A DNA stretch of 64,000 bases from Eledone cirrhosa (lineage: Eukaryota). The notes beneath the pieces are model-generated. The model ran no database searches, was not told the origin of the DNA, and was given only the letters and a program-made list of their open reading frames with translations. The stretch spans positions 42,966,001 to 43,030,000 of the forward strand of contig OZ024750.1 of NCBI GenBank assembly GCA_964016885.1, in the 5' to 3' direction. Both the position numbers and the translations under genes were made by a program. Below, piece by piece: positions 1,238 to 38,878 of the stretch. Position 1 is the stretch's first letter, and the number at the start of each line of letters is the position of its first letter.

Positions 1238-1730
1238 GTGAATGATAGATAGGATAAACAGGAGAAAGTGAAAATTGAGAGAGACAAAGATGAAAACAAA
1301 ACAAAGGTAGAAGGGTTACCGTAGTGGAGATTTAATCCCAATATTTCGGGCTCACGCCCATCAACGGGGGAAAGTTCCAAAAGGGGGGGGGGGGGGAACA
1401 GGCTAAGCGGAGAAAGTTGTGATGTCGTTAAGACAACGGCATTCCTGTCTTAACGACATCACAACTTTCTCCGCTTAGCCTGTTCCCCCCCTTTTGGAAT
1501 TTTCCCCCGTTGATGGGCGTGAGCCCGAAATATTGGGATTAAATCTCCACTACGGTAACCCTTCTACCTTTGTTTTGTTTTCATCTTTGTCTCTCTCAAT
1601 TTTCACTTTCTCCTGTTTCTCCTATCTATCATTCACTTCCTACCTCGAGATTTCCCTCTGCATTGTTGTGGCTTTCTAAACTACGTATTTTACACATTTC
1701 ACAATGCTTCAAGCAAACTTTAACACCCTC
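1238..1730 (+). mobile_element. Short fold-back element (probable Penelope-like pLTR fragment) with about 195-bp inverted arms
   Basis: 1238-1435 is the near-perfect reverse complement of 1446-1636, with a 10-nt loop. A unique tail runs to 1730. TA/TC microsatellite flanks both sides. It carries a hammerhead-like motif. Confidence 0.7.
1503..1538 (+). ncRNA. Degenerate minimal hammerhead-like motif (mirror copy at 1336-1371, minus strand)
   Basis: tccc-CCGTTGA-t-GGGC gtga GCCC-GAAA-tatt-ggga. The core differs from CUGANGA at two positions. Confidence 0.35.
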
Positions 1731-2083
1731 ATATATATATATATATACATATCTCTCTCTCTCTATATATATATACATATATATATATATATATATACAT
1801 ATCTCTCTCTCTATATATATACACACATATATATATACATATCTATCTATCTATATATTTATATATATATATACATATCTATCTATCTATATATTTATAT
1901 ATAGATAGATATGTATATATATATATATATACATATATATATATATCTATCTATCTCTCTCTCTATATAGTTAGAGAAGTAAAAAATTGCTTATTGTGAT
2001 CCAGTTTTTGGTTAAGAAAGCCAGTTTCATGGATGGTTTCAACGTTTCTCTATATATTAAGAATTATTTCAAGAGTAACTTAC

Positions 2084-2185
2084 TATTTTGAAAATTTGGA
2101 CTGTGAAGAACAATTATAATTGAGTGGCTGCTATTTGCAGTATAGCAATATAAGGTTGCACTTACCAATGAAACGGTCGTAAATA
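2084..2185 (+). ncRNA. Type-I hammerhead ribozyme candidate (U3:A8 core)
   Basis: tatt-TTGAAAA-tttgg...ccaat-GAAA-cggtcg-TA-aata, followed by AATAAA repeats, inside a unique island (about 1970-2250) flanked by (TA)n. Confidence 0.5.
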
Positions 2186-3001
2186 CCTGGATAAATAAAT
2201 AAATAAATACCTTCTCTTAATGCTTACCTGTGTTTTCTCTTTTATACTATACATATATATATATATATATACATATCTATCTATCTATCTATATATATAT
2301 ATATATATATACACATATACATATATATATATACATATCTATCTATCTATAATATATATATATATATATATATATATACATATCTATCTGTATATCTCTA
2401 TATATATATACATATATATATATACATATATATATATACATATCTATCTATATATATCTATCTTTATATATATATACATATCTCTCTCTCTATATATATA
2501 CATACATATATATATACACACACATATATATATATATATATATATATATATATATATATATATCTATATATATATATATCTATATATATATATATATCTA
2601 TATGTGTATATTTACGATATTAGATTGGACTTCATAACTTCGACATGTTCTTCTCTTTCCATACACACACACTCATTCACATTCACATTCACACACACAC
2701 ACACACACACACACATACACACACTCATTCACATTCCACACACACACACACATACTCACACACACACACACACATTCACACATACACTATGGCCGACATA
2801 TTGACTGTATTGACACTGAAGATATATGTTGTCGAATTAATAGACCTTTCATAGATTGACATAAAGGTGGGGTGTATGGGAAGTGTGTATGTGTGTGTGT
2901 GGGGGGGGGAGTGGGTGTGTGTGTTAATGTGTATGAGTGTGTGTGTGTGTATGTGTGTGAGTGTGTGTGTGCTTGGTAGAACCTGTCATTATATAGTCCA
3001 A

Positions 3002-3188
3002 GCGGTGGATTGGCAGTATCGGTAGAGGGTCGGACGCCATGCTTTCGAGCATAGTTATGTCCCTTTACAATCTGAGTTCAAATCCCGCCGAGATTGAATT
3101 TGCCTTTCATCCTTACGGGGTCGATAAAAGAAGTACCAGTAATGCACTAGGTAATTGTTGGCCTTGTGCCTAAAGTAGAAACAATTAT
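3002..3188 (+). mobile_element. tRNA-derived SINE (family A)
   Basis: tRNA-like head (ggattggcagtatcggtagag...gagttcaaatccc), conserved body tttgcctttcatccttacggggtcgataaaa..agtacc and tail ggccttgtgcc. Many copies in the window. Confidence 0.75.
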
Positions 3189-3271
3189 ATAGTCCAACCT
3201 ATTATCATGGACAATGTCCGCCGACTGATCTTTGTTAAAATATGTAATATTATCTCTTAATATCCCTGCCA

Positions 3272-3390
3272 TTCTGAGATCAAATCCCGCCGAGGTTAAC
3301 TTTGCCTTTCATCCTTACGGGGTCGATAAAATAAAGTACCAGTAATGTACTGGGTAATTGCTGGCCTTGTGCCAAAAGTAGAAATAATTA
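3272..3390 (+). mobile_element. SINE family A, 5'-truncated copy
   Basis: High identity to 3070-3188. Confidence 0.75.
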
Positions 3391-3446
3391 TCTCTTAATA
3401 CCCTGTAATAATTTAGAAGAAAATAACATAGATATGTTTGTTAACC

Positions 3447-3997
3447 CTGAGAGCATTCCTCAGTCAGACTTCTGACTGAGGAATGCTCTCAGAACTGACC
3501 AATGGGAAGTTTGACACTTTTTTTTGTTATTTTGTTCCTTTAACACCTTGTCCCTTCTGCCAATTTATCAATTTTTAAGCTAACTCCAACAATAACAACA
3601 CTTAGAATGAGGAATGTTCTAACAACTGACCAATGAGAGGAGAAGAGGACCTTTGACACTGAAATTCGTTTGTTTGAATTCATACGACTCCAGTTCCTCA
3701 GTGAAATAACAACCCAACAAGGAACTGGGCATATCAGAGTATTGACAATATTATACACCTAAACAACATATGTACTTGTCTATACCATACTAATTCAAAC
3801 TGCCTGAAGAGGTCACAGTCAAAGATGGCTGTCACTGAAATATATATAGCAGTAATAAACGAAGCTAAATTTTAATCATTTGACTTTTATTTAACTTTAT
3901 TTTACACTACTCCGGAGTAACCAAACCAACCTGCGCACTTCGTCGAGTGCTCCAGCCTGCATACTGAGGTGTTGGTATACAACCAACATAAACTCAA
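3447..3997 (+). mobile_element. Hammerhead-bearing Penelope-like pLTR fragment starting with a perfect 22-bp hairpin
   Basis: Hairpin at 3447-3468/3471-3492, hammerhead at 3799-3853, then AATAAA and a tail ending in (TA)n. Related to 38641-38878. Confidence 0.65.
3799..3853 (+). ncRNA. Type-I hammerhead ribozyme
   Basis: actgc-CTGAAGA-ggtcacagtca/tggctgtcact-GAAA-tatata-TA-gcagt. Complete canonical core, stem I and stem II, with palindromic stem III. Confidence 0.85.
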
Positions 3998-36667: not shown

Positions 36668-36799
36668 TACATATATATATATATATATATATATATATAT
36701 ATATATATATATATATATATATATATATATATATACGTATTGTATTGAATATCTGTTGATTCCACTGTTGAGTGTTTCAGTTGTTCCATCAACAGAACA

Positions 36800-37198
36800 T
36801 GCTGCTCATGAACCTAATGTGCAAGTGGCTGAGCATTGCACAGACACGTGTATCCTTAGTATAATTCAGGGAATTTCACTTTAACCCTTTAGCAATTAAA
36901 CTGGCCGTATCCGTCTCGAATTCCCTCACCTCTTTCTGTTCAAACTGGCTGCTCATACTTATGTTAAGCTATTGTTCGCAAAATAACATCAAAAATAACA
37001 TCAGCCAAATCTCATAGATTCGATATTATGTGAGATAATTATGTGAAGTAAAGCCTTTGCCATGGAGAGGGTTAAAAAGCTGGCCTTTTCAATTACAGGT
37101 ACAACTCATTTATGCCACCTGAGAGAAGTGGAACAACGTCAAATATAGTGATCACTACCTTACGGTCATGTGTCCGACACCCTAACCACTAAGCCAAA
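36800..37198 (-). mobile_element. Degenerate tRNA-derived SINE interrupted by a TTAA-flanked insert
   Basis: Minus-strand tRNA-like head tggcttagtggttagggtgtcggac near 37197. The remaining body is degenerate. Confidence 0.45.
36885..37071. mobile_element. Possible piggyBac-type MITE
   Basis: TTAA|CCCT...AGGG|TTAA ends. The TIR match beyond 4-6 bp is weak. Confidence 0.4.
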
Positions 37199-37336
37199 TA
37201 CGTGTCTACACGTATATTTATACACGCACACATATATATGCACGTATACACGACCATATGTATGTATGTATGTATGTATGTATGTATGTATGTATGTATG
37301 TATGTATGTATGTATGTATGTATGTATGTATGTATG

Positions 37337-37945
37337 TGTCAGGTCACCAGTTGGTGCTACTGGTAACATGTATCCCAGTACAACCTGTCTCATGGTCGGG
37401 TCGTTGGCGACTAAACTGGCAACCCCACCAAGGTTTCTTGGTGAGGAGGGTGACTTTGGACATCCTGCAGGACTAAAAACAAAACCTGTCAAAGGGCAAG
37501 GGAGCTCTTAAGACTCAATAGCCATCCAAAATCACCGGGAGAGATGACCCCTTAGCCTTTGTCAAGGCAGAATTCTAGGAGAAGGAAAACTCTGATATAA
37601 TACCTGCAACCCTGATGGTATCCAATGATGTTGACTTGTTCTTCTTTTTGGTAAATATCATCTTGGTTAAGAGAGTGGGACTGGCTTTGTGCAGTGCCTT
37701 TGCTCACTATAAAAGCTTCACAGCACAGGCATTGCTTTATATCTGGAGATCTCTCGGCACTTGTCATCACATGGTACCATGGGCCCTGCACTATGTGTCA
37801 ATAATGGTCACAAGTGTAGTCTTTGTGCCAGAGTTTTCAAGTCGCTGGCTGGACTAAAAAGTCACATTCGTTCAGCGCATCGGTAGGGGTTCTCCTACAT
37901 GGATATAAAGTAGTGGCCGTACTCGAAAACGAGTTGGCAGCCACC
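37337..37945 (+). mobile_element. Bipartite non-autonomous RTE-clade element, copy 1, with (TATG)n tail
   Basis: RTE-type 5' UTR motif ctaggagaaggaaaactctga joined to a 3' end encoding the C-terminal C2H2 finger (KCSLCARVFKSLAGLKSHIRSAHR). No EN or RT domain. Confidence 0.7.
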
Positions 37946-38028
37946 ATGTATGTATGTATGTATGTATGTATGTATGTATGTATGTATGTATGTATGTATG
38001 TATGTATGTATGTATGTATGTATGTATG

Positions 38029-38637
38029 TGTCAGGTCACCAGTTGGTGCTACTGGTAACATGTATCCCAGTACAACCTGTCTCATGGTCGGGTCGTTGGC
38101 GACTAAACTGGCAACCCCACCAAGGTTTCTTGGTGAGGAGGGTGACTTTGGACATCCTGCAGGACTAAAAACAAAACCTGTCAAAGGGCAAAGGAGCTCT
38201 TAAGAGTCAATGGCCATCCAAAATCACTGGGAGAGATGACCCCTTAGCCTTTGTCAAGGCAGAATTCTAGGAGAGGGAAAACTCTGATATAGCACCTGCA
38301 ACCCTGATGGTATCCAATGATGTTGACTTGTTCTTCTTTTTGGTAAATATCATCTTGGTTAAGAGAGTGGGACTGGCTTTGTGCAGTGCCTTTGCTCACT
38401 ATAAAAGCTTCACGGCACAGGCATTGCTTTATATCTGGAGATCTCTCTGCACTTGTCATCACATGGTACAATGGGGCCAGCACTATATGTCAGTAATTGT
38501 CACAAGAGTAGTGTTTGTACCAGAATTTTCAAGTCGCTGGCTGGACTAAAAAGTCACACTCGTTCAGTGCATCGGTAGGGGTTCTCCTACATGGATATAA
38601 AGTAGTGGCCGTACTCGAAAACGAGTTGGCGGCCACC
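38029..38637 (+). mobile_element. Bipartite non-autonomous RTE-clade element, copy 2 (head-to-tail, 692-bp offset)
   Basis: Slightly diverged direct repeat of 37337-37945, separated from it by (TATG)n. Confidence 0.7.
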
Positions 38638-38640
38638 ATG

Positions 38641-38878
38641 TATGTAACAGCTATGACCTCATCAGACAGCTAGATTTTGAACAGAAAAAACGCAGAAAAA
38701 CATAACGATGGAATAAAGCTTACTTCTGTTATTTTAATGTTTTGATATGCCCAGTGCTGAACTTTGGTGTTGTTCTCTCAAAGCACCGGTTGCACAATGG
38801 TTATCACCGAAATATATATAACAGCAGCCATGAATAAACGAAGTTAATTTTAATCTGTTGACTTACACTTCTTGTTTA
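38641..38878. mobile_element. Relative of the 3447-3997 element whose hammerhead is split by an inversion
   Basis: Minus 38646-38670 reads gctgt-CTGATGA-ggtcatagctgtt. Plus 38796-38825 reads aatggttatcacc-GAAA-tatata-TA-acagc. It shares actgggcatatca and aataaacgaag with the 3.7-3.9 kb copy. Confidence 0.7.

Follow-up and report, generated by a model that had tools for sequence, protein, structure and literature searches.

The first 40,000 bases of the window—the whole 64-kb stretch analysed here, from the 3.0-Gb assembly of Eledone cirrhosa (contig OZ024750.1)—alternate between (TA)n arrays and short islands, and it is in these islands that nine complete minimal hammerhead ribozyme motifs, belonging to six insertions, are found alongside partial ones (Table 1). 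What are these islands, and how did ribozymes come to lie among TA microsatellites? We argue, with a probability of about 0.88, that the islands are 5'-truncated and often inverted copies of Penelope-like elements (PLEs) that carry hammerheads in their 3' repeats, together with one 591-nt retrozyme that likely uses the same enzymes. The data show high copy number, links to open reading frames (ORFs) and flanks of (TA)n, as well as partial tandems and inversions, and every family has two fixed 3' ends.

Table 1. Ribozyme-bearing elements and motifs in the window (Hydra-type: PLE families placed by protein motifs, see below)
Position	Strand	Feature
1238–1731	.	PLE with CCHH-type nuclease, two-armed 3' end; degenerate hammerhead-like motif (1503–1538) and its inverted copy
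2084–2185	+	Hammerhead, U3-A8 core, long helix II, fifth Hydra-type family; element ~1980–2250, which starts with its own inverted tail
3799–3853	+	Complete hammerhead, second Hydra-type family; 3' end of element ~3560–3997
5396–6334	−	591-nt tandem unit (retrozyme), ORF-less, 1.58 units, 5'-truncated, short 3' end, in (TA)n
5468–5555	−	Hammerhead, U3-A8 core, 10-nt palindromic helix III, 57-nt helix II region
6059–6146	−	Second hammerhead, identical to the 5468 copy, 591 nt upstream
16760–16790	+	Extra GAAA-half hammerhead with TA palindrome and AATAAA, absent from the initial annotation
16888–17056	.	Inverted pair of GAAA-half hammerheads, long near-palindromic helix III, sixth Hydra-type family
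20871–21022	.	Second insertion of the 17016 family: short arm and inverted tail
26881–27022	−	Inverted copy of the 27037 hammerhead, same insertion
27037–27178	+	Complete hammerhead, 105-nt extended helix II, third Hydra-type family; element ~26842–27364
28050–32037	+	Hydra-type PLE, 5'-truncated, inverted 5' arm; long 3' end right, short left; in (TA)n
28091–28156	−	Inverted copy of the 31841 hammerhead, same insertion
29159–30430	+	PLE ORF, C-terminal 423 aa: YRDD, thumb, CxCX5C linker, GIY-YIG-type nuclease, CxxC, CxH; 97–99% identity to ~30 stop-free frames (≥738 aa) at other loci
31841–31906	+	Minimal type I hammerhead, complete, canonical core, 8-nt palindromic helix III, C-C mismatch at helix II position 4
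34277–34323	−	Hammerhead, U4C core, at the 3' end of the fourth Hydra-type family
38635–38877	+	Hammerhead split by inversion (CUGA half minus, ~38646; GAAA half plus, ~38796); older family

Hammerhead motifs in the window and across the genome

The motifs were sought with a descriptor that combines the core, helix II, a palindromic helix III and helix I, in a strict and a relaxed core version; it recovers eight of the nine complete motifs, the one at 2084 having been identified by hand. With the strict core there are 5 matches in the window and none in any of 30 dinucleotide shuffles of bases 1–40,000, and with the relaxed core 8, against 0, 1 or 2 matches in 39, 9 and 2 of 50 shuffles, so the excess over shuffled sequence that the initial annotation of this DNA presupposed is real. 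All nine complete hammerheads that it listed, each by the low end of the motif, are indeed present, and its partial sites at 1503, 17016, 20890 and 38646/38796 are as it described them; what it left unsaid is that four of the nine cores are variants (U3-A8 at 2084, 5468 and 6059, U4C at 34277), the other five being standard. Type I topology, a conserved core and a short palindromic helix III, the marks of minimal PLE hammerheads, are thus found together, with variant cores in 4/9, and helix II runs from 20 to 105 nt across the complete motifs. The degenerate core at 1503 is common to its whole family; at 17016 and 20890 only the GAAA half is left (the 17016 insertion lost its CUGA half through truncation), and the halves at 38646/38796 have been separated by an inversion. 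Elsewhere in the genome the 17016 family does have a full motif (L127, L134, L198, L229), with a CUGAGAA core, in which either C3 stands opposite A8 or N7 is missing, and a 19-nt near-palindromic helix III. A search of the window with hammerhead models came out divided: the descriptor found 8/9, whereas the Rfam scan gave no hammerhead family among the best 150 of its 597 matches, its top rows being miRNA models on microsatellites and foldbacks.

How common are such motifs? In 112 evenly spaced 10-kb stretches of the genome (1.12 Mb), the relaxed descriptor made 91 matches, and the removal of 16 from one minisatellite and 4 chance-like ones leaves 71 in 60 insertions; shuffled versions of the sample gave 2, 3 and 3. 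This density, 63 per Mb, extrapolates to ~190,000 motifs genome-wide. Against such a background the "archipelago" of the initial annotation largely dissolves, since the window holds 8 matches where 4.1 are expected (P=0.055) and 5 insertions where 3.4 are (P=0.26), the flanking 80 kb hold 1 match, and the window and flanks together (9 matches in 144 kb) stand at the genome rate, with single sampled 10-kb stretches reaching 5 and 7. The islands are multi-copy, as had been supposed: nine window-island queries gave 1486, 392, 2097, 1115, 2264, 2017, 728, 1747 and 2235 candidates, which are first-look counts and so lower bounds (40 were scored per query), and in five families the top copies are 98–100% identical. 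The AATAAA that had been noticed close behind the motifs also recurs in the genome sample, lying no more than 25 nt past the predicted cut in 22 of the 60 sampled insertions against a background of 1.9%.

One feature of helix II deserves separate mention. We grouped 31 distinct sampled motifs, from families that are related, by their 8-nt helix III palindrome; position 4 is a C-C or C-U mismatch in 30 of them, and positions 2–8 are otherwise paired in 26–30, with varied pairs. The conserved C-pyrimidine mismatch suggests a tertiary contact, and it may be a single inherited trait. Among the titles and abstracts listed in our literature searches we found none on this mismatch or on a cephalopod retrozyme. 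Dimeric PLE hammerhead variants were reportedly treated by Lunse et al. in 2017, in work that could already cover the core variants and the long helices. Other observations on the motifs can be added: a further family has a compact U3-A8 hammerhead, identical in four copies (L205 6452/7083, L239 662/5892), and relative to the copies at L062–L072 the window's 34277 motif has a double change, from G-C to A-U, that preserves a distal pairing of helix I. Two ideas were discarded. The 105-nt helix II of the 27037 family is not taken for an intron, the splice-like words at its ends being explained by base pairing and absent from other long helices, and heterodimers between different families on one strand are ruled out by helix I strands that are not complementary.

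Coding elements, insertion ends and a non-coding unit

As the initial annotation had it, a single coding ORF lies in the window (29159–30430). It matches 99 of 99 scored places at 97–100% identity, about 30 of these being stop-free frames of at least 738 aa, and some full copies lie in 4.0-kb tandems (L046). The motifs of the 738-aa protein, read by eye, are those by which section 11 of PMC8557442 defines the Hydra clade: DKT, RWR, YRDD, CxCX5C, a C-terminal YVG nuclease block and then CxxC and CxH, with no CCHH. A single ORF, that is, appears to join a reverse transcriptase (RT) to a C-terminal GIY-YIG nuclease; the CxCX5C linker, in place of CX2-5CxxC, occurs in the 31841, 3799, 27037 and 17016 families; CxxC and CxH stand beside a conserved E and N where CCHH is lacking; DKT is found in the 31841 and 3799 families, with RWR in the former and RWK in the latter; and the elements sit in (TA)n with a hammerhead in the pseudo-long terminal repeat. 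Naiads, in which the nuclease is N-terminal and a canonical hammerhead is lacking, do not fit, the nuclease here being C-terminal and the hammerheads present.

Does the rest of the collection have coding parents as well? Upstream of the hammerhead, on the same strand, an ORF was found in the families of 31841 (L046), 3799 (L043 and L044, in the order hammerhead–ORF–hammerhead), 27037 (L279), 34277 (L278), 17016 (L275), 2084 (L277) and 1503 (L280). Because of these ORF links elsewhere in the genome, seven of the nine families examined are recognised as 5'-truncated 3' ends of ORF-bearing PLEs: six with Hydra-type motifs, and the 1503 family, whose C-terminal nuclease has a CCHH motif and a GIY-YIG match (E=1.4e-4) just under the cut-off. 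By that pair of features the 1503 family is of another PLE type, in the Neptune/Nematis/Poseidon group. For the 38796 family no ORF link was seen in 12 loci, and the only non-coding element shown among the nine is the 591-nt unit. The description of the system as "mostly non-autonomous" therefore falls, while that of Penelope-type minimal hammerheads in several families of mobile elements that target (TA)n is upheld by the ORF links and TA flanks. Several families there are, as had been said, yet they are not six unrelated ones, since six share Hydra-type ORFs, and the ORFs of five (3799, 27037, 34277, 17016 and 2084) are 26–54% identical to the window element's protein over the aligned stretches. 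Other PLE clades, with Neptune-like ORFs, also occur in the same TA arrays (L077, L103, L137, L126, L280), and three PLE protein queries found matches in 19, 9 and 3 of the 112 sampled stretches.

The ends of the insertions follow a common rule. Past the hammerhead, all nine families have two fixed 3' ends, about 40–165 nt apart, and in none of them does the predicted cut coincide with either end. All 57 two-armed insertions with TA at both ends (8 families, 13 of the insertions being retrozyme) pair a long 3' end with a short one, in a sample drawn from best matches each picked for one end type. Classical twin priming on one linear RNA is a misfit, for the two arms share sequence and their breakpoints are scattered. 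A tail at one PLE end is known from PMC8557442 and PMC3846280, in the parts that deal with it, and the relevant part of Frangieh 2024 (PMC11167929) traces the tail to two internal reverse-transcription starts. The strict long/short asymmetry constrains models of PLE integration.

The 591-nt unit has no ATG frame longer than 75 aa and has the features of a non-LTR (long terminal repeat) retrozyme: it is dispersed, multi-copy and non-coding, and every repeat of its tandem arrays contains a type I hammerhead. It yielded at least 392 first-look candidates, with copies 99–100% identical across many chromosomes and older ones at 94–97%; its presence in 4 of the 112 sampled stretches extrapolates by hand to ~10,000 insertions, with a wide error. 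Over 27 loci the arrays reach 6.25 units, start at scattered 5' points and are often inverted; the 3' end lies in TA in 16/16 insertions, and both ends do so in 14 of the 15 that are fully seen. A sister family, ~75% identical, has units of 582–590 nt and the same two ends. Between the two, 43 of 43 ribozyme core and helix bases are identical (compared by hand), and because no ORF overlaps them this conservation points to selection on the ribozyme. A search for expression listed no RNA data set that contains the 591-nt unit. Head-to-tail joints of the unit appear in four of four runs (of unspecified kind), which tandem DNA fits as well as circles do, and closed 591-nt loops in contigs of runs X1 and X5 are not accepted as RNA circles, tandem DNA yielding the same. 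Array-wide private variants (L265, L266) are compatible with a rolling circle and a linear multimer alike; L269 fits neither simply.

Around these elements lie other repeats. Two related LINE 3' ends, at 1–1070 (+) and ~18800–19380 (−), have a zf-RVT domain (Pfam E=4.7e-6) and terminate in microsatellites; a LINE RT 3' fragment at 25040–25670 (−) stands between long TA arrays, with a similar frame in L052; and an internally deleted Tc1/mariner-like element at 36105–36665, with terminal inverted repeats and matches to HTH (helix-turn-helix) domains, sits in (TA)n. A ~25-nt minisatellite occupies 6 kb (6765–13093), with a 2334-nt higher-order duplication visible in its ORF spacing. An unassigned repeat has pieces at 37342–37939, 38034–38630, 32454–32600 and 35380–35584; its two long copies are in tandem, and the 38646 hammerhead element comes directly after them (37342–38630). 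Copies of an abundant SINE-like repeat, presumably akin to an octopus SINE, lie at 2990–3420, 16000, 21900 and 39500, and at ~16890 its 5' end is joined to a 17016-family arm. Beyond these arrays and islands, a short-period GT-rich array precedes an 18-kb GT-rich satellite (~41000–58900) with 9/12/21-nt periodicity, and the final stretch, 63294–64000, is unique, richer in CpG and equipped with CCAAT-like boxes, possibly a promoter region.

Mobilisation, self-cleavage and competing accounts

How might such islands be made? A Hydra protein would nick (TA)n, and priming would follow at the long and short RNA start sites, one for each target strand, with copying halting at random to leave truncated arms. 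Cutting by the hammerhead would require a tandem dimer or the assistance of a protein and would reduce multimeric transcripts to single units, which might then be circularised; solo genomic copies would be nearly silent. The retrozyme would use a Hydra-type protein in trans; that it rides on PLE enzymes we consider likely. For a related PLE protein, PMC11167929 describes nicking of both strands of AT-rich DNA and two internal sites on the RNA from which reverse transcription begins.

The silence of solo copies bears on the claim that any transcript crossing the region would meet self-cleavage sites. In all five palindromes of the complete motifs, folding energies make helix III unstable in the monomer (hairpin +1.5 to +4.7 kcal/mol, duplex −3.2 to −12.9), and because helix III needs a partner, cutting of passing transcripts by solo copies is predicted to be unlikely. 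Only the 17016 family folds alone (−7.0 kcal/mol), and its window copies are without half the core. The copies at 5468 and 6059 are the only same-strand pair of one family in the window and could form a double hammerhead in cis; nothing else there can pair so, and cleavage of passing transcripts elsewhere in the region is therefore improbable. In the pertinent passages of Cervera 2014 (PMC4209133), a monomeric minimal hammerhead did not cleave and a dimer cleaved at a low level.

Several results tell against our reading and must be set out. With Pfam the 738-aa protein shows no domain, and the Hydra-type proteins, the window ORFs included, show neither RT nor GIY-YIG; a PDB search with the 738-aa protein gave no match; and the RT and nuclease calls come from motifs read by eye and from Atlas look-alikes at 0.96–0.98, some of which have GIY-YIG or RVT_1 on a minority of members. 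It is by motifs that the six families would be placed in the Hydra clade. Two long ends are present in one array, L269, which was excluded from the count of two-armed insertions because its left end abuts a LINE. An autonomous partner of the retrozyme was not found, 0 of 25 sister-family loci being continuous with an ORF, and a search through a 77% relative led to just another ORF-less family. According to PMC11167929, insertion in vitro can do without the hammerhead, there assisted by protein, and RNA ends at the cut site were not seen. Finally, bases 1–40,000 taken alone are enriched, with 8 matches against 2.5 (P=0.005) and 5 insertions against 2.1 (P=0.07), in a range picked after the fact. 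TA clusters are 1.7 times more frequent there (9.0 against 5.25 per 10 kb), and we infer that the hammerheads cluster here only through this density of TA microsatellites, their presumed target.

What else could account for the islands? Chance in AT-rich, microsatellite-rich DNA does produce matches, as the 20 of 91 judged false in the genome sample attest, and for the motifs at large it has a probability close to nil, the strict core never having arisen in a shuffle and the motifs recurring with covariation in hundreds to thousands of copies. The initial annotation's own model, a distinct and mostly non-autonomous ribozyme retroelement system that is locally clustered and makes the region self-cleaving for passing transcripts, could point to a 591-nt unit and a sister family that are truly ORF-less, to the majority of window copies, which have no coding sequence, and to bases 1–40,000, about three times denser than average. 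It is nonetheless largely refuted by the running of seven of nine families into PLE ORFs elsewhere and by the background rate, and with an unstable monomer helix III besides we rate it very unlikely. Scarcely more probable is the view that the retrozyme arrays arise mainly by local tandem DNA amplification and not by repeated reverse transcription: head-to-tail, near-identical arrays are what one would expect of it, and amplification is proposed for PLE terminal repeats in the part of Li 2026 (bioRxiv 10.64898/2026.07.22.740005) concerned with them, but the arrays lie on many chromosomes and show scattered starts, two fixed ends in TA and frequent mid-array strand flips, just as the ORF-bearing elements do.

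A more serious contender would accept the elements as PLEs and see the hammerheads as inert passengers, or as relics in decay, that contribute nothing to mobility. Non-standard cores pervade whole families (U4C, the C3-A8-like core of the 17016 family and the remnant at 1503), the predicted cut falls at neither genomic end, Naiads thrive without hammerheads (as PMC8557442 has it in its Naiad account), and catalytic mutants insert normally in vitro in the experiments described in Frangieh 2024 (PMC11167929). Against it, all 43 ribozyme core and helix bases agree between non-coding retrozyme families ~75% alike; in a diverged contig, 9 of 9 listed substitutions fall in the helix II loop region, and helix II covaries across families around its fixed mismatch. 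We regard the passenger explanation as unlikely, though less so than the others. At the opposite pole stands an extension of our reading in which the 591-nt unit is a very young ~10,000-copy retrozyme whose footprints prove Penelope-type mobilisation from circular, ribozyme-made RNA, and in which the one-long-one-short rule reflects a dimeric PLE complex priming two target strands at two different RNA starts. This we hold tentatively, at rather worse than even odds; if it were true, the retrozyme and the intact active Hydra ORF that this genome also contains would form an in vitro pair with which to settle the purpose of PLE hammerheads.

Relation to known elements and ribozymes

Set against the literature, the islands as truncated PLE copies are real but mostly known: hammerheads in PLE ends, mass solo copies, the U3-A8 variant, Hydra elements in (TA)n and retrozymes have all been published. 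The Hydra clade is one of C-terminal EN+ (endonuclease-positive) PLEs in the account of Craig et al. 2021 (PMC8557442), whose supplement lists Hydra-1_Obim with (TA)n and a hammerhead. Like the elements here, that clade is described there with a C-terminal nuclease, the CxCX5C linker, DKT, RWK, CxxC and CxH without CCHH, and with (TA)n insertion, a hammerhead near the 3' end, partial tandems, inverted arms and a tail at one end. Unlike what those pages report, the units here are 3.5–4.1 kb long ("generally" <3 kb there), belong to at least six families of very high copy number (one Octopus family is listed there), and have tails of ~40–165 nt (30–40 there) and a helix II of up to 116 nt; the Hydra-1_oBim hammerhead given there differs from every motif of the window. 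A 2026 Octopus repeat paper (PMC13282606) lists active Penelope families, and a term search of it found no occurrence of "ribozyme."

The minimal PLE hammerheads of Cervera and de la Pena 2014 (PMC4209133) resemble those of the window in being of type I, in their tiny palindromic helix III and U3-A8 variant, in thousands of solo copies from truncated PLEs and in opposite-strand pairs 100–700 bp apart. In contrast to that description, G10.1-C11.1 does not hold throughout here, helix II has a conserved C-pyrimidine mismatch at position 4, and U4C and C3-A8-like cores are fixed across whole families; PMC3088659 notes that U3-A8 has activity and mentions a viroid variant with U4C. Animal non-LTR retrozymes (Cervera and de la Pena 2020, PMC7229834; Li, Clavereau and Pollet 2026) are, in the extracts concerned, likewise non-coding tandem units with a type I hammerhead per repeat, and the 591-nt unit falls within the 51–972 bp reported in the section on sizes of bioRxiv 10.64898/2026.07.22.740005, where PLE mobilisation is also proposed. 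What the retrozyme here adds is a PLE integration signature (two fixed 3' ends, inverted arms, 5' truncation and a TA target), which those extracts do not report for published ones.

The Poseidon element PAc of Anolis, in the portions of PMC11167929 that describe it, offers a mechanistic parallel: two internal RT starts explain its long and short ends, its target is AT-rich, and its hammerhead lies upstream of both ends. It belongs, however, to a different clade; the start sites here are 80–165 nt apart in most families; and whereas PAc in vitro shows no difference of start site between strands, genomic two-armed insertions here are long plus short in 57/57. Because Pfam is silent on the 738-aa protein and no Rfam hammerhead stands among the best 150 of 597 matches, families such as these are easily missed by annotation. 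This genome offers an intact, recently active Hydra ORF and a very young retrozyme whose insertions bear the same signature, and its ~190,000 motifs, with their natural core variants, should be useful in asking what hammerheads do for PLEs and how retrozymes are linked to them.

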